From UHGV virus genome UHGV-0212642: 43,289 nt of DNA; one strand, 5' to 3'. Below the pieces are notes generated by a model, which worked only from the letters and a program-made list of their open reading frames with translations, was not told the origin of the DNA and did no database searches. Made by a program: the position numbers and the translations under genes. This stretch comes from a virus. Shown here piece by piece: positions 1-6,270 of the stretch (positions within the stretch are counted from its first letter, which is position 1; the number at the start of each line of letters is the position of its first letter).

Positions 1-39
1 ATTTTTTTCTATTTTGGTTTAGAACAGGAGAATAATGCA

Positions 40-378
40 ATGAATACTTTTCAAAGAATTCAATATTTAGCTAATAATAAAGGTATGTCTATAGCTGAAT
101 TAGAAAGAAAACTCAATCTATCAAATGGATCAATTGCTCGCTGGAAAAAATCTGCTCCCAGTTCTCGTGGCTTAACAATAATAGCCGACTACTTCGATGT
201 ATCTGTTGACTATTTATTAGGTAGAGAAAAAGATGAATATGCTGGCGAACAAGAAGATGAAGAAATTCGTATCATGCATCGTGGAGTTAAGAATATGACA
301 AAAGAAGATAGAGAAAAAGCATTAAAAATGTTTGAAACTTTCTTCGATAATTGGGACGAATACACTAAAGACAAATAA
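40..378 (+). CDS. XRE-family HTH transcriptional repressor (ImmR/cI-like lysogeny repressor)
   Basis: 112-aa ORF. N-terminal HTH_XRE-like sequence (MSIAELERKLNLSNGSIARWKK). AGGAG RBS at 26-30. First gene of a repressor-immA-int operon, divergent (across the circular junction) from a cro-like gene. Confidence 0.8.
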   Translation: MNTFQRIQYLANNKGMSIAELERKLNLSNGSIARWKKSAPSSRGLTIIADYFDVSVDYLLGREKDEYAGEQEDEEIRIMHRGVKNMTKEDREKALKMFETFFDNWDEYTKDK

Positions 379-1063
379 AGGGGATTTTATTTTGCATTTT
401 GTATATCAAAATTCATTTTTAAAAGCAGCACGAGCTGTAAGTGCATTAATTGAAACTAATTATATAGATGAATTCCCTTTACCTATTAAAGAAATAATAG
501 AGAATGATAGTAATGTGGAATTATTTACTTTTGAAGATTTTTGTAATATGACTGGATACACTTTAAATGAATTACAAACATATGGTGGTTCTGATGAGGC
601 TTTTCATATTAAAAAAGGAAACAAGTTTGCCATTATTTACAATGATGATGTATATCATAGAAGATTACGTTTTACATTAGCACATGAATATGGACACTAC
701 ATTATGGAACATGATGGTATGAGCTATAAGAAAACACCTATATTCCAAGATTCTCAACGTACTTATTTAGAAGAGTATGAAGCCAACTCGTTTGCCTCAT
801 GCCTCTTATTTCCACTTAATATAAGATACAAATATCGTAATGTATTAACTGTTGATGATGCTGCTGATTTATTCAAAATAAGTTATCAAGCAGCAAAGGT
901 CGCACTCGATATCTTTGACGAACACATGGACAGTGGTTTAGAAAATCACATATCTATATTCGAGCATAGGCACATGGAAACTTATATGTCATTTCTTGAT
1001 GAAATGCTCGGTGAACAACTAAAAGAGTATAACCACATAATGAGAGCAGAATACGGTTATTAA
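332..1063 (+). CDS. immA: ImmA/IrrE-family zinc metallopeptidase (anti-repressor protease)
   Basis: HEXXH motif (LAHEYGHYIMEH), typical of COG2856/ImmA, immediately downstream of the XRE repressor. Probable true start is TTG at 392, which has an AAGGGG RBS, rather than ATG at 332, which overlaps the repressor gene by 47 nt. Confidence 0.8.
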   Translation: MKLSSIIGTNTLKTNKGDFILHFVYQNSFLKAARAVSALIETNYIDEFPLPIKEIIENDSNVELFTFEDFCNMTGYTLNELQTYGGSDEAFHIKKGNKFAIIYNDDVYHRRLRFTLAHEYGHYIMEHDGMSYKKTPIFQDSQRTYLEEYEANSFASCLLFPLNIRYKYRNVLTVDDAADLFKISYQAAKVALDIFDEHMDSGLENHISIFEHRHMETYMSFLDEMLGEQLKEYNHIMRAEYGY

Positions 1064-1159
1064 AACTCACTACGGCGATTACTCAATTACGTTTGAGCCG
1101 TTGAGGGTTTTTAGGTTGTATGAGGTGTATTGAATTTATCTATTTTAAGGAGACAATGA

Positions 1160-1342
1160 TTGATAATTTTAAATTGCAAAATAAAATCAAATGAAATTGT
1201 TTACGAAGTTAAAACGAATAAAAATAATTACTTCACCTATTCTTTACCTAAAGATATTACATCTTATAAAGTAAGAAAGGTGCTTAAAATTATTGAGAGT
1301 AAAGTAGATGAAGACGAAGATTATTTAAGCAAAGGAGGTTGA
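1160..1342 (+). CDS. Small hypothetical protein with acidic C-terminus; first gene of the moron cassette and possible partner of the downstream HEPN-like protein
   Basis: 60-aa ORF with TTG start 7 nt after an AAGGAG RBS (1147-1152). Stop lies 3 nt before the next gene's ATG. Acidic tail DEDEDY. No recognisable family. Confidence 0.45.
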   Translation: MIILNCKIKSNEIVYEVKTNKNNYFTYSLPKDITSYKVRKVLKIIESKVDEDEDYLSKGG

Positions 1343-1345
1343 GGG

Positions 1346-2314
1346 ATGGAAAACTTAAGTAAACAATTGGTTGATAAAAGCATCGAGTCTTTTATTTTAG
1401 GTTTAGAAATATATAATAAACCAACTATTAAGTATAGAATCGAAGGCTTTTCATTTTTTATTTGTAACGCCTGGGAATTGATGTTAAAAGCAGAATTATT
1501 GAATCGTGGAGAAAATATTTATTACGAAGACAACCCTGATAGAACAATCAGTTTAAATAACGCTATTAAATTAATTTATCCCGATTATAATACTAGAATA
1601 AGATTAAATTTAGAAAAAATTGTCGATTTGAGAAATATTAGTACTCATTTTATAACCCAGGAATATGAGATCAAGTATGCCCCATTATTCCAAGCGTGTG
1701 TAATGAATTATATTAATGAGACTATGAGATTTCATAGCCAAGATGTTTCTGAAAATATTTCTCAAAATTTTTTAACTATTTCTGCTAGTTACGAACCTTT
1801 ATCTAACGAACAAATAAAGTTGAAATATCCACCAGAAATAGCAGAAAAATTAATTAAAGAGTCTAATGAGGTAGACGTATTAAGTAAAGAGTATAATTCT
1901 GATAAGTTTTCGATTGGTATTAAGCAAAACTTGTATATAACGAAAAGGTCAGAAAATGCTGATTTCACGGTAGCTGTTCATAAAAACTCAGATAATAAAG
2001 TTGATTTTATTAAAGAGTATAAAGACCCATCAGATACACATAAATATTCTTTTAAAAATGTAATAACAGCGGTGAACGAAAGGCTTAAAAAGAAAAATAT
2101 AAATATGGATTATTCTAAGGGCTTCAATCAATATGTACTAAATTTGATAATTGATTTTTATGACATAAAAAACGAGGAAAAATACGCATATAAACACACA
2201 ATAGGAAAACAAGAATCTTTCACTTATTCTCAACAATTTATTGAATTTATTGTTAGTGAAATAAAAAAGAATCCAACAAAATTTGTCGATAGTTTGAGAA
2301 ATAAAAAAAGATAA
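1346..2314 (+). CDS. Hypothetical protein with an Rx4H HEPN-like motif (candidate Abi/toxin-type RNase)
   Basis: 322-aa ORF with GGAGG RBS. N-terminal alpha-helical region contains LRNISTHF, i.e. R-x4-H, the HEPN signature. Very AT-rich. Lies between immA and int, a typical moron position. Confidence 0.5.
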   Translation: MENLSKQLVDKSIESFILGLEIYNKPTIKYRIEGFSFFICNAWELMLKAELLNRGENIYYEDNPDRTISLNNAIKLIYPDYNTRIRLNLEKIVDLRNISTHFITQEYEIKYAPLFQACVMNYINETMRFHSQDVSENISQNFLTISASYEPLSNEQIKLKYPPEIAEKLIKESNEVDVLSKEYNSDKFSIGIKQNLYITKRSENADFTVAVHKNSDNKVDFIKEYKDPSDTHKYSFKNVITAVNERLKKKNINMDYSKGFNQYVLNLIIDFYDIKNEEKYAYKHTIGKQESFTYSQQFIEFIVSEIKKNPTKFVDSLRNKKR

Positions 2315-2443
2315 CCCCAGGCACATAGGAATGCTCAGTGCTTCTGCACCTACCCCATTTTGGGACCCAGCGTTAATCCTTCTCGAGTTATCTTGACTTT
2401 ATTATATGACATTATAGGTAGTAATTCAAGAATTATAATTTTA

Positions 2444-2474
2444 GGGTAGCCCACCTACCCTTATTATTTTTTTA
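2444..2474 (+). terminator. Rho-independent terminator downstream of the HEPN-like gene
   Basis: GGGTAG-cccac-CTACCC hairpin followed by TTATTATTTTTTTA. Confidence 0.5.
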
Positions 2475-2495
2475 CCTTTTTTAGGAGATGAAACA

Positions 2496-3878
2496 ATGAA
2501 AGTAGCGATTTACACAAGAGTAAGTACATTAGAGCAAAGAGAAAAAGGCCATTCTATAGACGAACAAGAACGTAAATTGCGTTCATTTTGCGATATAAAC
2601 GATTGGACAGTTAAAGACGTTTATGTAGATGCTGGATTTTCGGGAGCTAAAAGAGATAGACCGGAATTGACGCGTTTGTTAGATGATATAAGCGAATTTG
2701 ATTTGGTATTAGTTTATAAGTTAGATAGATTGACACGTTCAGTGCGCGACCTTTTGGACTTGTTGGAAGTATTCGAGAATAACAATGTTGCTTTTAGAAG
2801 CGCTACTGAGGTATACGACACAACAACAGCAATAGGTCGGCTGTTTGTAACGTTAGTCGGCGCTATGGCCGAGTGGGAGCGTGAGACAATTAGAGAGCGC
2901 TCTTTAATGGGAAAACGTGCAGCAATTAAAAAAGGTATGATATTAACAGCTCCCCCATTCTACTATGATCGCGTAAACAACACTTATATACCTAATCAGT
3001 ACAAAGATGTTGTGTTAGATGTTTATAACAAAGTTAAAAAAGGTTATAGCATTGCACATATAGCACGTTTATACAACAATTCAGATGTAAAGCCGCCAAA
3101 TGGTAATGAAGAATGGACTACACGCATGTTGATGCACGCACTTAGAAACCCGGTCACACGCGGCCATTATCAGTGGGGAGAAATCTATATCGAAGATAGT
3201 CACGAGCCTATCATAACAGATGAAATGTACAACACAATAATAGATAGATTAGACAAGCACACGAATACTAAAGTAGTAGCGCATACATCTGTTTTTAGAG
3301 GTAAGTTAATTTGTCCTAATTGTGGTTACGCTCTAACGTTAAATTCACAAAAAAGAAAGCGTAAAAATGATACTATTGTTTATAAAACGTATTACTGTAA
3401 CAACTGCAAAATTACAAAAGGAATGAAACCACATCATATTACAGAAACAGAAACATTACGTGTTTTTAAAGATCACTTATCTAAAATAGATTTAAAACAA
3501 TATGAGACACAAGAAAAAGAAAAGCAATCACATGTAACTATCGATTTGTCTAAAGTTATGGAACAACGGAAAAGATACCATAAATTATACGCTAGTGGTA
3601 TGATGCAAGAAAATGAGTTGTTCGAATTAATAAAAGAAACTGATGAGATGATAGAAGAATACGAAAAACAAAGAAAGCAAGTTGATGTAAAAGAGTTTGA
3701 TATTGGTAAAATCAAAGAAATTAAGAATGTGCTATTAAAATCTTGGGATATATTCACATTAGAAGATAAAGCTGACTTTATACAAATGTCTATAAAAGCT
3801 ATTAATATAGAGTACACTAAGTTAAAACGCGGTAAAGCTAGCAATTCGATGAAGATTAAAGATATTGAATTCTATTAA
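2496..3878 (+). CDS. int: Large serine recombinase (phage integrase)
   Basis: 460 aa. N-terminal resolvase catalytic domain (MKVAIYTRVSTLEQ, catalytic Ser10). Recombinase domain, Cys-rich zinc ribbon (CPNCGY...CNNCK) and C-terminal coiled coil. RBS AGGAGATG. Confidence 0.9.
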   Translation: MKVAIYTRVSTLEQREKGHSIDEQERKLRSFCDINDWTVKDVYVDAGFSGAKRDRPELTRLLDDISEFDLVLVYKLDRLTRSVRDLLDLLEVFENNNVAFRSATEVYDTTTAIGRLFVTLVGAMAEWERETIRERSLMGKRAAIKKGMILTAPPFYYDRVNNTYIPNQYKDVVLDVYNKVKKGYSIAHIARLYNNSDVKPPNGNEEWTTRMLMHALRNPVTRGHYQWGEIYIEDSHEPIITDEMYNTIIDRLDKHTNTKVVAHTSVFRGKLICPNCGYALTLNSQKRKRKNDTIVYKTYYCNNCKITKGMKPHHITETETLRVFKDHLSKIDLKQYETQEKEKQSHVTIDLSKVMEQRKRYHKLYASGMMQENELFELIKETDEMIEEYEKQRKQVDVKEFDIGKIKEIKNVLLKSWDIFTLEDKADFIQMSIKAINIEYTKLKRGKASNSMKIKDIEFY

Positions 3879-4334
3879 TTTTGTACGGAAGTAGATACTA
3901 TCTTTCAATATCCATGTTACTTAGTGCCATACAAAAACCACGCTCATAAGAACGTGGCTAGTAGAATATAGTATCGATAAGACGTTATCGTTAGGTATAT
4001 TATAGCATAAAAATAGCCTACTGGGGAACGAATCGCCAGTAGGTAAAACTCCACAACCACTACTATATTTTACATTCGCGACTATAAAATATAGCTTGTA
4101 CGGTTGTGCGCCGTGTTTACAGTTTTCTATCCCACTGTCAAAGTCATAGTCGTATTCATCATTCAGACAAGAATCTACGCCTACTACGGCAAGGTTGATA
4201 AATATATTATAGCATAAAAATACCCATACTCCTAAACTAATAGGTGGTATGGCTTGGGTCGCTATGTATATACACCACATTAACCTCTTGTTTGGTATCT
4301 GTTAACAACTCAGAAAGAGATAATACTTTTAAGG
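3879..4334. other. Probable attP-containing non-coding region between int and the lysis module
   Basis: Position adjacent to the serine integrase. 8-bp inverted repeat CCTACTGG-N11-CCAGTAGG at 4017-4043. 21-bp direct repeat TATATTATAGCATAAAAATA(G/C)CC at 3997-4017 and 4203-4223. The exact crossover site cannot be determined without bacterial attB. Confidence 0.35.
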
Positions 4335-4610
4335 TCAATTATCCTGATAGCCCTTCAAAATGTCGTTTATTTCGTCTTCTGTTTTAATTTTCGTTGCGTT
4401 CACATTTGTTTTATTAATTCTTTTACTTTCGTTAACATCCATTGCATTTAAAAGCTTTTGAGCTGATTTTTGTGTAAATTTATAATCTGTAGTAATACTT
4501 ATTGTAGCCATACTACCCACATCTTTCTTTTGATATAATTGTATTTCTTCATAGTTATGATAATACTTTATATTGTCTGTATGCAATAGAAATGTGTAAT
4601 TTTTTCGCAT
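4335..4610 (-). CDS. Hypothetical protein (moron position between lysis module and attP)
   Basis: 91-aa ORF with weak RBS and no recognisable domain. This location carries accessory genes in many staphylococcal prophages. Confidence 0.3.
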   Translation of the reverse strand: MRKNYTFLLHTDNIKYYHNYEEIQLYQKKDVGSMATISITTDYKFTQKSAQKLLNAMDVNESKRINKTNVNATKIKTEDEINDILKGYQDN

Positions 4611-4803: not shown

Positions 4804-6270
4804 TTAACTTATATTTCCCCACAAAACACCCTTGCTATCTGTAGATTTATCCCAAGTTCTGACGGGTAACCATACATTTTTACCATTGTTTGCTGTATAC
4901 GATACCCAAATGTAACCGTCTTGCTTGCATACAGTGTCATAGATAATGCTTTGACCAGCTTGTAAAACTCCGGCTTGCGGACATGAAGTAAATGGCCCTA
5001 TATATCTTGTTCTAATCGCGGTATTGGGTGTAAATGTTGCATGTTCCGCTTTGTAATAAGTACCGTATTGATTTACTTTCCAGCCGTTCGAGTTTGTGCG
5101 CGTGGCAGGTGTAGAAGCACTGCCAGGTTTATTCACAATCGTTGTAGATGTAGGTTGTTTACCGGCCATATAAGCACGAATTTGTTTGATGAAGTAATCT
5201 TTTAACTTCAATCTAGCTTGTTCAGTGATAGAATTGTGTATTGGGTCTAATCCAGCGTGTAACTTCATTGATCTGTGCGGGCATGACGTTTGGCTAAATT
5301 CATTGTGTAAGCGCACAGTATTTCTGTTAGCGGGTAAACCCCATTTTTTGAGCTTCTGCGCTGCAAATTGAAATACTGCTTGTTCATTGGCTAGAAATTC
5401 TTTATCACTAGCGCTTAATGATTGGTTCACTTCTATACCATAGAAATCGTGGTTACCGCTTCCAGGATTGATACCGTCCGCACAATGCCAAGCAATGCGA
5501 CTCTCGTCTATAGCTTCCCAAATACCGTTTCTGTCTGCATATGCGTGAGCAATACCACGCGCTAATCTGTCGTAGTTAGCATTCACTAAACTATTGTAAT
5601 AATTTTGAGAATTTGCTGAACCGGCGTCATTGTGTATGACAACACCATGAGGATTATAGCCGCGTTTGTCCATTGTCCAACCAGTGATGCGTTTTGTATT
5701 TACTTCTATTTTTTTAGTTTTCGTTTTATTTGTTTGAGTAGGAGCTTTTTTTGTTTCTGTTTTTAGCACTTTAAACTCTTTTGCTACTGGAGGTACGATA
5801 AAGTGCGTTAAGCCATAGTAGTTATCCCAACGTAATGTAGGCTTTTTATTAGCATAGCCGTTCCAATTTTGTTCTAAAATTTGGAACGAGTTAGTATTTC
5901 CACCGTTATAAACAATGCCTATGTGCCCGTATTGTGCGTATGTGCCGCTTGTAAATACGGCAATCCAGCCTTTTTGCGGCACTGTTTCTGGCATATTTTC
6001 AATAACTTTCCAACCGGTAGGGAATTTATTGTTAGGGAAGTCTTTAGCGTTGCCCCACGCCTTATATTGGTTATCAGTTAACCAAAGAATATAATCTGTA
6101 GGTAAGTCGGCACATTGTGCATGATAAAAGTGGTCTACATCAACGCAACCGGGTTCCATTGTGCTAAAAGCGGGGTCGTAACTCGTCCATGTTTTCACTC
6201 TATAAGGGCTGTCTACTGTGCCGTTTTTATAAGTGTCTAAACGTGCATTAATTTGTGATTGTGTTTTCAT
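4804..6270 (-). CDS. Endolysin: CHAP peptidase + N-acetylmuramoyl-L-alanine amidase (amidase_2) + SH3b cell-wall-binding domain
   Basis: 488 aa. N-terminal CHAP Cys/His pattern (CADL...GHIGIV). Central amidase_2-like region. C-terminal SH3b-like region (WKVNQYGTYY...). GGAGGAATAACA-ATG RBS. Architecture typical of staphylococcal phage lysins. Confidence 0.9.
   Translation of the reverse strand: MKTQSQINARLDTYKNGTVDSPYRVKTWTSYDPAFSTMEPGCVDVDHFYHAQCADLPTDYILWLTDNQYKAWGNAKDFPNNKFPTGWKVIENMPETVPQKGWIAVFTSGTYAQYGHIGIVYNGGNTNSFQILEQNWNGYANKKPTLRWDNYYGLTHFIVPPVAKEFKVLKTETKKAPTQTNKTKTKKIEVNTKRITGWTMDKRGYNPHGVVIHNDAGSANSQNYYNSLVNANYDRLARGIAHAYADRNGIWEAIDESRIAWHCADGINPGSGNHDFYGIEVNQSLSASDKEFLANEQAVFQFAAQKLKKWGLPANRNTVRLHNEFSQTSCPHRSMKLHAGLDPIHNSITEQARLKLKDYFIKQIRAYMAGKQPTSTTIVNKPGSASTPATRTNSNGWKVNQYGTYYKAEHATFTPNTAIRTRYIGPFTSCPQAGVLQAGQSIIYDTVCKQDGYIWVSYTANNGKNVWLPVRTWDKSTDSKGVLWGNIS

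Follow-up and report, generated by a model that had tools for sequence, protein, structure and literature searches.

Virus genome UHGV-0212642 carries, between its lysogeny regulators and its integrase, a gene for a 322-amino-acid HEPN protein. On the opposite strand, converging with this gene and antisense to its 3′ end, lies a gene for a structured small RNA of ~92 nt (Table 1). Comparison of homologous loci makes it highly probable that this RNA gene is real, and it appears to be previously undescribed. The locus as a whole is best explained as a HEPN RNase effector with a conserved antisense RNA partner, most likely an RNA antitoxin, a reading to which a probability of roughly 55% is assigned. 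The original prediction for this DNA was of an undescribed two-component module made of two proteins. A two-component logic probably exists, but the second component would be the antisense RNA, and the protein family has already been catalogued. The window referred to below is the whole stretch of 43,289 nucleotides that was analysed.

Table 1. Features of the cargo slot and its surroundings, with positions in the window
Feature	Position	Strand	Basis or remark
HTH repressor	40-378	+	Pfam HTH_3
M78/ImmA-type metalloprotease	392-1063	+	Pfam Peptidase_M78
Left flank of cargo slot: intergenic stretch, 60-aa ORF and RBS	1064-1351	+	four-way DNA alignment
60-aa ORF, TTG start, 80alpha gp5 homologue	1160-1342	+	phrog_1176
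322-aa HEPN gene, ATG start	1346-2314	+	DUF3644 and EC042_2821; PADLOC PDC-S19
Rx4H HEPN catalytic motif R96-N-I-S-T-H101 (in LRNISTH)	1631-1648	+	residue conservation
Predicted gene for a structured small RNA of ~92 nt, running convergently into the HEPN gene 3′ end (antisense)	2300-2393	-	covariance model, covariation
RNA helix P1	2393-2385/2317-2309	-	holds TAA stop codon 2312-2314 on other strand
RNA helix P2	2380-2378/2321-2319	-	
RNA helix P3	2372-2370/2324-2322	-	
RNA helix P4	2368-2366/2329-2327	-	
RNA hairpin P5	2364-2361/2356-2353	-	
RNA variable hairpin P6	2350-2346/2341-2337	-	
RNA U-run	2308-2303	-	
Predicted sigma-70-type promoter of RNA: -35 TTGAAT 2429-2424, 17-nt spacer, -10 TATAAT 2406-2401	2401-2429	-	scan, 10/12 match
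Hairpin and T-run terminator, conserved right flank of slot, directly 5′ of int	2443-2474	+	terminator scan (hairpin and T-run 2443-2461 and following)
Large serine recombinase (integrase)	2496-3878	+	Pfam Resolvase, Recombinase, Zn_ribbon_recom

Both predicted open reading frames, the TTG-initiated 60-codon ORF and the 322-codon gene, are real and lie between the repressor/ImmA genes and the integrase gene. The larger one is exchangeable cargo, and its slot is bordered by the lysogeny regulators on one side and the integrase on the other. In a four-way DNA alignment with prophages of S. pragensis, S. hominis and S. borealis, the left flank of the slot is near-identical until 'GGAGGTTGAGGGATGGA', after which the sequences are unrelated, and the flank ends with the start codon (ATG) of the cargo gene that follows. 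The terminator hairpin that forms the right flank also occurs in prophages L001, L003, L004 and L005, whatever their cargo; it had been taken for the terminator of the cassette, and while the structure itself is present, it is common to staphylococcal prophages with other cargo and not specific to this one. A weaker terminator proposed at 1082-1112 was missed by the terminator scan and falls in the block conserved with other prophages. The cassette was also described as AT-rich, and its GC content (0.25-0.29) is indeed lower than that of its neighbours (0.27-0.35 upstream and 0.34-0.41 in int), although the dip is only modest. No tRNA or tmRNA was found in the window by ARAGORN.

The 60-aa ORF is a small staphylococcal lysogeny-operon gene, a neighbour of the HEPN gene and not its partner. 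It had been proposed as an acidic antitoxin or sensor, and a dedicated toxin-antitoxin or sensor-effector module of the two ORFs would be in keeping with the 3-nt gap between them and with the position of the RBS of the HEPN gene inside the smaller ORF. Such a module is very improbable in view of the distribution of the two genes. The small protein matches phrog_1176 (E 2e-23) and is homologous to gp5 of phage 80alpha (ABF71576; 55% identity, E 3e-19). Its close relatives number only 11, all of them staphylococcal, while 96 phage records from Staphylococcus or Mammaliicoccus, among them 80alpha and phi11, contain copies with ~55% identity. In the CoNS prophages L003, L004 and L005 the ORF precedes unrelated cargo, comprising a PemK-like gene, DUF6978 with DUF1828/1829, and a DUF3644 remnant with Abi_2. 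The HEPN gene, in turn, occurs without the small ORF in phage S-CoN_Ph25, in the streptococcal satellite Javan344 and at loci of non-staphylococcal genomes, where its upstream neighbours are unrelated genes. DNA conservation, moreover, stops exactly at the start codon of the cargo. Contrary to the proposal, the small protein is basic, with a pI of 8.7 and 11 K+R against 9 D+E, only its C-terminal tail being acidic.

The 322-aa protein can be assigned with near certainty to the DUF3644/EC042_2821 HEPN family, although it had been thought to match no characterised family. It contains, in N-to-C order, DUF3644 (PF12358; residues 7-177, 186.4 bits, gathering cut-off 27.6, E 5e-55) and EC042_2821 (PF18740; residues 227-318, nt 2024-2299, 118.5 bits, cut-off 24.9, E 2e-34), both above the Pfam gathering thresholds. 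The protein also matches phrog_9605 and, over its full length, the PADLOC PDC-S19 models PDLC04952 (E 1e-146) and PDLC04949 (E 9e-123). PADLOC models PDC-S19 as a single-gene candidate defence system, and the family is thus already catalogued as a candidate anti-phage gene. Homologues number 3267 at E≤1e-3. The protein is not of the Abi_2 (AbiD/F) type that had been suggested, since Pfam gives no match to Abi_2 (PF07751) at E≤1.

The R-x4-H signature LRNISTH noted in the original prediction is confirmed. R96, N97, S99, T100 and H101 are each at least 95% conserved among 73 homologues with 46-94% identity, and these five residues are invariant in the close homologue set. The predicted structure likewise contains the expected HEPN fold, an all-alpha, up-down helical domain at the N-terminus, and the presence of this domain suggests that the protein is an RNase. 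A restriction-endonuclease (PD-(D/E)xK) fold with its catalytic triad was not confirmed in the C-terminal domain, and a sequence search of the PDB returned no solved relative.

DUF3644 has been described as a HEPN family (Anantharaman et al. 2013, PMC3710099), and by HMM the protein belongs to the same EC042_2821/DUF3644 family and PDC-S19, with the Rx4H HEPN domain at the N-terminus and EC042_2821 at the C-terminus. The family is also tied to mobile elements and to R-M/defence neighbourhoods; published descriptions and models treat it as a single protein, and the papers found to name DUF3644 mention no RNA partner. PDC-S19 was unmentioned in the literature searched. Two relatives with a DUF3644 HEPN domain provide defence: HEC-08 acts against phages and loses this activity when the HEPN histidine is mutated (bioRxiv 10.1101/2024.01.29.577857), and Ishtar ist1/ist2, where the domain is present in one of two proteins, defends against plasmid RP4 (bioRxiv 10.64898/2026.07.06.735840). 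Together with the PADLOC matches, these relatives bear out the suggestion that this prophage lysogeny module carries defence-type cargo.

The antisense RNA and its promoter occupy approximately 2300-2429, inside the region considered in the original prediction, where this conserved gene of the opposite strand was overlooked. The start of the RNA is predicted at ~2394-2392, which corresponds to the first base of helix P1. The RNA overlaps the end of the ORF (2300-2314, ~15 nt, the last 4-5 codons) and its 3′ UTR, to which it is perfectly complementary, and it is presumably transcribed in vivo. Pair counts on the RNAalifold consensus show 91.6% pairing, compared with 29-54% in slid controls; 17 pairs are changed on both sides, and the covariation score was reached by none of 500 shuffles. 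Compensatory changes are found in P1, P3, P4, P5 and P6, of which P6, with its register taken from the covariance model, is 68% paired and the least certain helix. The unpaired segments GAAGGA, CUGGGU and CCUGGGG are nearly invariant. Single-sequence folding of the element gave z-scores of -2.0 and -1.5, which are not decisive by themselves.

In helices P1-P5 there are 212 G.U against 5 A.C combinations, which assigns the RNA to the minus strand, and a structure of the plus-strand 3′ UTR is rejected by this ratio together with the minus-strand promoter and U-run. The element could also be regarded as a DNA-level feature, such as a recombination or cassette-boundary site or a bidirectional terminator, given its position at the margin of a mobile cargo gene and the inverted repeat GATAAC...GTTATC that encloses it. 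This is extremely improbable: the excess of G.U is a signature of single-stranded RNA, the U-run and a promoter at the right spacing are conserved, unlike the spacer sequence, and six helices with compensatory changes go far beyond what a terminator needs. A protein-coding element is rejected as well, for the position of the stop codon shifts relative to the element and the antisense ORF is unconserved; only 18 of 71 loci have an ATG-initiated ORF of 40 or more codons that begins within the element. Rfam gave no match within 1-4600 at E≤1 and none within 2280-2440 at E≤10, which rules out abiF, tRNA-like and other curated families. No prior description of the RNA was found in a literature search on PDC-S19, EC042_2821 and HEPN antisense/RNA antitoxin.

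In all 83 genome-derived loci with sequence beyond the HEPN gene, and in 78 of 78 independent viral loci with sequence there, searches with nhmmer and the covariance model located the RNA at the 3′ end of this gene. The co-occurrence holds down to 46% protein identity, and the RNA is always antisense. Each gene locus has one copy, which aligns as a single unit, and no other matches were found within the 865 kb plus 467 kb searched. A promoter with at least 10/12 matches that ends 6-13 nt ahead of P1 was found at 59 of 71 distinct genome loci (83%); shuffled sequences gave 1.3% and the opposite strand 1/71. This is replicated at 33 of 43 independent viral loci (1.2% of shuffles). The U-run is found at 62 of the 71 genome loci. 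At 40-50% protein identity, conservation is 0.75 in the RNA, 0.57 in the CDS, 0.41 at third codon positions and 0.45 in the flank; the RNA and the protein diverge together (r = 0.73). The gene-RNA unit spans Firmicutes, Fusobacteria, Melainabacteria and Saccharibacteria, with their phages and satellites; one example is satellite Javan9 of S. agalactiae A909. The RNA was found neither in the actinobacterial relatives at 23-25% identity (L167, L168) nor in 80alpha. As judged from these sequences, it is limited to a sub-clade whose members share at least roughly 30-46% identity with the 322-aa protein. The whole family does not need it, which weighs against the antitoxin reading.

Within this sub-clade, no intact HEPN gene lacks the RNA among the loci carrying sequence past the gene. 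The RNA is kept by four pseudogenised copies (L006, L034, L037 and L042) and by the internally deleted copy L004, and it persists as two orphan copies. A scan that started from the RNA found 26 of 113 RNAs without a HEPN gene, representing 18 distinct stand-alone sequences; ~13 of these retain the promoter and the U-run, and 5 are visibly decayed. The orphan at L216 is identical to the RNA of the window. The orphan RNAs could be recent deletion remnants, which is a point against an antitoxin role.

Survival of the RNA beside pseudogenised genes and as stand-alone copies, together with the lack of intact genes without it, follows the logic of an antitoxin. The same logic is seen in the promoters, which are common for the RNA and rare for the HEPN gene, where no conserved promoter was found (a good one at 8 of 67 loci, compared with 5% of shuffles), and in the absence of a conserved protein partner in neighbour scans. 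The RNA is therefore somewhat more likely to be a negative regulator or antitoxin of the HEPN protein than to have any other role, and it may, more tentatively, act through direct protein binding.

A purely cis-acting antisense regulator, either type I-like or based on transcriptional interference, would lower the HEPN mRNA without binding the protein. Convergent, 3′-overlapping RNA antitoxins are known in type I systems of Bacillus and Staphylococcus, and the convergent direction and the perfect complementarity to the end of the gene agree with such a function. In 80alpha, the antisense promoter Pith helps to repress Tha through collision (PMC11087260). This explanation is nevertheless unlikely. 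A cis-antisense regulator needs neither a conserved sequence nor an elaborate fold, yet the three unpaired segments are nearly invariant, and the RNA is far better conserved than the gene that it overlaps, by only ~15 nt. Many stand-alone RNAs, moreover, keep the promoter and the terminator with no gene left for control in cis.

The RNA might instead be a positive cofactor, that is, a scaffold, guide or sensor for the activity or the target choice of the HEPN protein. HEPN enzymes with RNA partners exist, for example Cas13 with its crRNA; the RNA is found with every intact gene and co-diverges with the protein, and the tested relatives are not reported to be toxic alone. Strict co-occurrence is equally explained by a cofactor or guide role, and to that extent counts against the antitoxin. 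A cofactor is, however, quite unlikely, as orphan RNAs with an intact promoter and terminator and pseudogenes beside an intact RNA would be unexpected, and the RNA has no variable guide-like segment except a short hairpin stem, the two sides of which co-vary.

Under the antitoxin reading, which is preferred here, inhibition by the RNA, its mode and its trigger are envisaged as follows. The RNA would be expressed from the opposite strand by a strong promoter of its own, run convergently into the end of the HEPN gene and terminate at the stem and U-run that hold the stop codon. It would silence the RNase as an antitoxin or immunity RNA, most likely by protein binding, in the manner of type III RNA antitoxins and AbiF/RCd22, and antisense pairing with the 3′ end of the mRNA and promoter collision may add to this, as in Pith/Ith. 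An infecting phage that stops host transcription or degrades RNA would bring about the loss of the antitoxin, upon which the HEPN RNase would cut cellular or phage RNA and the infection would abort. Upon induction of the resident prophage, the RNA promoter would go on firing with the lysogeny operon switched off, and autoimmunity would thus be prevented. Stand-alone copies of the RNA on other phages may serve as anti-defence decoys. It is possible, though doubtful enough to be put forward with caution, that the RNA is the founder of a new protein-binding antitoxin/immunity class for HEPN RNases, with such phage-borne copies as its decoys against lysogens that carry the HEPN gene.

Two known systems, Tha/Ith and AbiF/RCd22, serve as precedents for the antitoxin reading; the gene-RNA pair parallels them and is distinct from both. 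Tha/Ith of S. aureus phages 80alpha and phiNM2 (Rostol et al. 2024, PMC11087260) is a HEPN RNase defence in the cI operon and occupies the same slot, with the gp5-like small ORF on one side and int on the other, as is shown directly in 80alpha. There, a convergent antisense gene overlaps the 3′ end of tha and switches Tha off, and an antisense element is found here too. The HEPN domain is C-terminal in Tha (R265/H270) but N-terminal in the 322-aa protein, which has no homology to Tha-1 (80alpha ORF3; BLASTP E 0.76). The inhibitor Ith is a protein, whereas a structured RNA is present here; an ith-like protein-coding inhibitor gene is not what the element represents, as it is non-coding. In AbiF/RCd22 from the C. 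difficile prophage phi027 (PMC12373285), a ~100-nt structured RNA binds and neutralises a prophage HEPN (Abi_2) toxin. RCd22 is equipped with a terminator and a sigma-A promoter of its own, and a promoter and terminator are likewise predicted for the RNA described here. RCd22 is, however, located upstream in the sense direction, is co-transcribed and contains two Rfam abiF motifs (RF03085), while the present RNA is downstream, antisense, single-copy and without an Rfam match.

As in type III toxin-antitoxin systems (ToxIN etc.), an RNA gene adjoins the gene of a putative endoribonuclease and the two are conserved together, but classic type III antitoxins such as ToxI consist of tandem repeats that the toxin processes. 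The RNA here is single-copy, which counts against the antitoxin reading. Type I systems such as txpA/RatA and bsrG/SR4, with 3′-overlapping convergent antisense RNAs, are frequent in Firmicutes prophages, and their toxins are small membrane peptides. The cis-encoded antisense RNA overlapping the mRNA is common to these systems and the present pair; the candidate toxin is a soluble 322-aa HEPN protein and not a small hydrophobic peptide. To our knowledge, RNAs of the txpA/RatA and bsrG/SR4 type are not conserved beyond close relatives, whereas the sequence and structure of the present RNA are conserved across phyla.

HEC-08 and Ishtar can be compared by description only. HEC-08 has an N-terminal DUF3644 HEPN domain like the 322-aa protein, but its C-terminal part contains zinc ribbons. 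In Ishtar, an Acinetobacter system reported to be monogenic and active from Ptet, the domain is likewise N-terminal, in one of the two proteins. An RNA is reported for neither. That these tested relatives (Ishtar ist1/ist2 and HEC-08) are reported as single-gene systems working from heterologous promoters is a further point against the antitoxin.

This HEPN family is widespread, stands on lists of candidate defence genes and is treated as a single-gene system. If the gene in this clade always travels with the RNA, cloning of the ORF only could mislead on toxicity or defence, and defence-finding tools would miss half of the system, as well as orphan RNAs that may be phage counter-defences. The pair would then be a second, independently evolved case of a HEPN RNase under structured-RNA control beside AbiF, and RNA-controlled HEPN proteins of this kind would bear on the origin of RNA-guided HEPN enzymes such as Cas13. 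The ‘noncontiguous operon’ logic of Tha/Ith would recur, in the form of an antisense 3′ off-switch of a prophage defence gene in which an RNA replaces the protein. With >150 instances and clear covariation, the RNA would constitute a new family for Rfam.

Four plus-strand genes and ORFs open the window, and the two ORFs of the original prediction are both real; a modest dip in GC (0.25–0.29) extends across them. Beyond the integrase, a non-coding stretch matches other staphylococcal phages at 93–95% over ~80 nt (3929–4013), probably attP, and a 488-aa ORF at 4804–6270, on the strand opposite to the integrase, is probably an endolysin. On these grounds the window resembles the genome of a temperate phage, either excised or circularly permuted; tRNA genes are absent from it.

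Features of the lysogeny region and its cargo
Feature	Position	Strand	Remark
HTH repressor	40–378	+	
M78/ImmA-type protease	392–1063	+	
60-aa ORF	1160–1342	+	TTG start
322-aa ORF (HEPN gene)	1346–2314	+	3 nt after 60-aa ORF
Antisense RNA	~2393–2300	-	~92 nt, predicted
Antisense RNA promoter, TTGAAT-17-TATAAT	2429–2401	-	promoter scan
Hairpin + T-run	2443–2461		terminator scan
Large serine recombinase (integrase)	2496–3878		downstream of the four plus-strand genes/ORFs

The 322-aa protein matches Pfam DUF3644 (residues 7–177, E 5e-55) and the EC042_2821 domain (residues 227–318, E 2e-34), as well as the PADLOC candidate PDC-S19 (E 1e-146) and phrog_9605. The family is already known and catalogued, and this protein adds a member to it. 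A HEPN candidate for defence had been rightly spotted in this hotspot of lysogeny modules; the novelty of the protein had been over-estimated. The R-x4-H motif is present as LRNISTH (R96-x4-H101), with conservation of at least 95% at R96, N97 and H101 among 73 homologues of 46–94% identity. DUF3644 was defined as the EC042_2821 HEPN family, whose members frequently carry a REase-like domain fused at the C-terminus (Anantharaman et al. 2013, PMC3710099). A DUF3644 HEPN domain is found in HEC-08, an anti-phage defence that requires the HEPN histidine (bioRxiv 10.1101/2024.01.29.577857), and in one of the two proteins of Ishtar, which clears plasmid RP4 (bioRxiv 10.64898/2026.07.06.735840). The family is large and mobile, with 3267 homologues; those of ~70% identity occur in lactobacilli, streptococci, Lachnospiraceae and Fusobacterium. 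The 47 phage records with the family are mostly streptococcal satellites, where the gene adjoins int.

Neighbour scans found no conserved protein neighbour of the HEPN gene. The commonest upstream families are HTH repressors (12/65), S24 (7/65) and M78 (7/65), and downstream 18/63 neighbours are integrases, with restriction-modification or defence genes among the others. The 60-aa protein, originally taken for an acidic partner, has a basic pI of 8.7, and its tail alone is acidic. It matches phrog_1176 and gp5 of phage 80alpha (55% identity, E 3e-19) and has only 11 close relatives, all staphylococcal; of the 96 phage records in which it occurs, 93 are from Staphylococcus and 3 from Mammaliicoccus. 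The gene order in 80alpha is cI, gp5, a 61-aa ORF, tha-1 with antisense ith-1 over its 3' end, and int. In three coagulase-negative staphylococcal prophages the same small ORF precedes other cargo: a PemK-like gene, DUF6978 with DUF1828/1829, or a 33-aa DUF3644 remnant and then Abi_2. In phage S-CoN_Ph25 the HEPN gene comes immediately after ImmA, and the small ORF is absent beside it in the streptococcal satellite Javan344 and in the non-staphylococcal genome loci. This distribution largely rules out the 60-aa ORF as the HEPN partner; judged by it, the ORF is a resident of the lysogeny operon and forms the left boundary of a slot whose cargo is exchangeable.

Staphylococcal prophages share this slot (window 1064–1351 and 2441–2495; L003, L004, L005 and L086). 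With the three coagulase-negative prophages, DNA identity starts just past the ImmA stop (~1064) and ends at the cargo start codon (1351). This left flank comprises an intergenic stretch, the gp5-like ORF and an RBS, up to the cargo ATG. The right border (2441–2495) is the conserved terminator hairpin before int; the predicted downstream terminator is present, but it is common to prophages with other cargo rather than specific to the cassette, and the weak terminator proposed at 1082–1112 was not picked up by the terminator scan. The cargo is unrelated and of defence type: Tha in 80alpha, the DUF3644 HEPN gene in the window, PemK-like, DUF6978 + DUF1828/1829 or Abi_2 genes elsewhere. Variation extends to the genes that precede the small ORF, among them an RNase_T exonuclease and a fused D12 methyltransferase–DpnII.

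Alignment of the 3' flanks of the HEPN genes reveals an ~84-nt block (GATAAC...GTTATC), which begins at the stop codon and is conserved from Staphylococcus to Streptococcus. It is present in every locus with sequence past the gene among 80 genome loci (homologues of 46–82% identity) from Firmicutes, Fusobacterium, Melainabacteria and Saccharibacteria. The stop codon lies before the block, inside it or up to ~35 nt in, and an antisense ORF across it is not conserved (18/71 loci), which rules out a protein-coding block and indicates that it is non-coding.

A sigma-70 promoter with at least 10 of 12 matches ends 6–13 nt before the first helix in 59 of 71 distinct loci, compared with 1.3% of shuffles and 1/71 on the other strand, and was replicated in 33 of 43 independent viral loci (1.2% of shuffles). 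In contrast, a good promoter of the HEPN gene's own is rare (8/67 versus 5% of shuffles). A U-run follows the closing stem in 62/71 loci. RNAalifold and pair counts support four stacked helices and two hairpins: 91.6% of cells are paired versus 29–54% with the partners slid, 17 pairs change on both sides, and the covariation score was reached by 0/500 shuffles. Pair 3:92 is AU in 48 sequences, UA in 9, CG in 9 and UG in 4, and pair 22:81 is CG in 41, GC in 15 and AU in 9. Helices P1–P5 contain 212 G.U cells against 5 A.C cells, so the predicted structure works only as a minus-strand RNA. Four lines of sequence evidence, namely promoter, terminator, structure and strand asymmetry, strongly support an RNA gene on the minus strand.

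At 2385–2410, read on the plus strand, a moderately T-rich run (TTGACTTTATTAT) comes after the P1 stem. The closing stem of the RNA may therefore terminate in both directions and end the HEPN mRNA as well. Were it leaky, lysogeny-operon transcripts would pass the RNA promoter to the terminator at 2443–2474, and promoter collision would be possible.

A covariance model built from the genome loci finds exactly one copy per locus and two orphans in 865 kb, and among separate viral contigs that did not go into the model it detects the RNA in 78 of 78 loci with sequence there. At 40–50% protein identity, conservation is 0.75 for the RNA, 0.57 for the CDS, 0.41 for third codon positions and 0.45 for the flank; by this comparison no other part of the gene–RNA unit is as well conserved as the RNA. 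It has no match in Rfam 15, even at E ≤ 10, and no description was found in the literature searched. The model did not find it in actinobacterial relatives (23–25% identity) or 80alpha, and thus the RNA marks a sub-clade of the HEPN family.

No intact HEPN gene of this sub-clade was found without the RNA, while, unlike the reverse, the RNA without an intact gene is common. Four homologues with premature stops (L006, L034, L037 and L042) all keep it (95–102 bits); in one of them, from S. edaphicus, GAA has changed to TAA near codon 105. In S. hominis GCA_003043055.1 (L004:4187–4381), an internal deletion leaves a 33-codon DUF3644 stub joined to the last codons, with the RNA and promoter intact (94 bits); a 214-aa gene, an Abi_2 gene and int lie beyond. 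The tandem orphans (L012:4334–4426 and L054:4638–4730) each lie ~1.3–1.6 kb upstream of an intact unit and carry a remnant of the gene 3' end, which suggests duplication in tandem or successive insertions at one site. When viral contigs were scanned for the RNA first, 113 RNAs were found: 84 next to a DUF3644/EC042_2821 gene, whether complete or partial, and 26 with no such gene, among them 18 distinct stand-alone sequences; ~13 of the 18 keep the promoter and U-run, as judged by eye. The sequence of one orphan (L216) matches that of the window RNA exactly. Another (L181:4273–5448, IMGVR_UViG_3300008747_000162) lies 20 nt past the stop of a convergent Abi_2 (AbiD/F-type HEPN) gene rather than DUF3644, reflecting either a change of cargo in which the RNA was retained or its use across families.

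This asymmetry between gene and RNA, the strong independent promoter of the RNA and its conserved single-stranded motifs fit an antitoxin that works partly or wholly in trans and probably binds the HEPN protein; less probably, the RNA is purely antisense in action or a cofactor. A precedent is AbiF/RCd22 of C. difficile, where a prophage HEPN toxin is bound by a ~100-nt RNA (PMC12373285), although RCd22 is upstream, in sense orientation and with Rfam abiF motifs. Tha/Ith of 80alpha shares the slot and an antisense inhibitor overlapping the 3' end, but Ith is a protein (PMC11087260); ith alone is carried by one phage as an evasion factor (PMC11087260). By analogy, the RNase would be expressed from the lysogeny operon during lysogeny and restrained by the antisense RNA, infection would tip the balance between them, and on prophage induction the operon would fall silent with the RNA still present.

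While the protein family was already known, a previously unreported antisense RNA gene that always accompanies the HEPN gene in this sub-clade is strongly supported, and the unit is therefore probably a variant of RNA-controlled HEPN toxin or defence systems not reported before.
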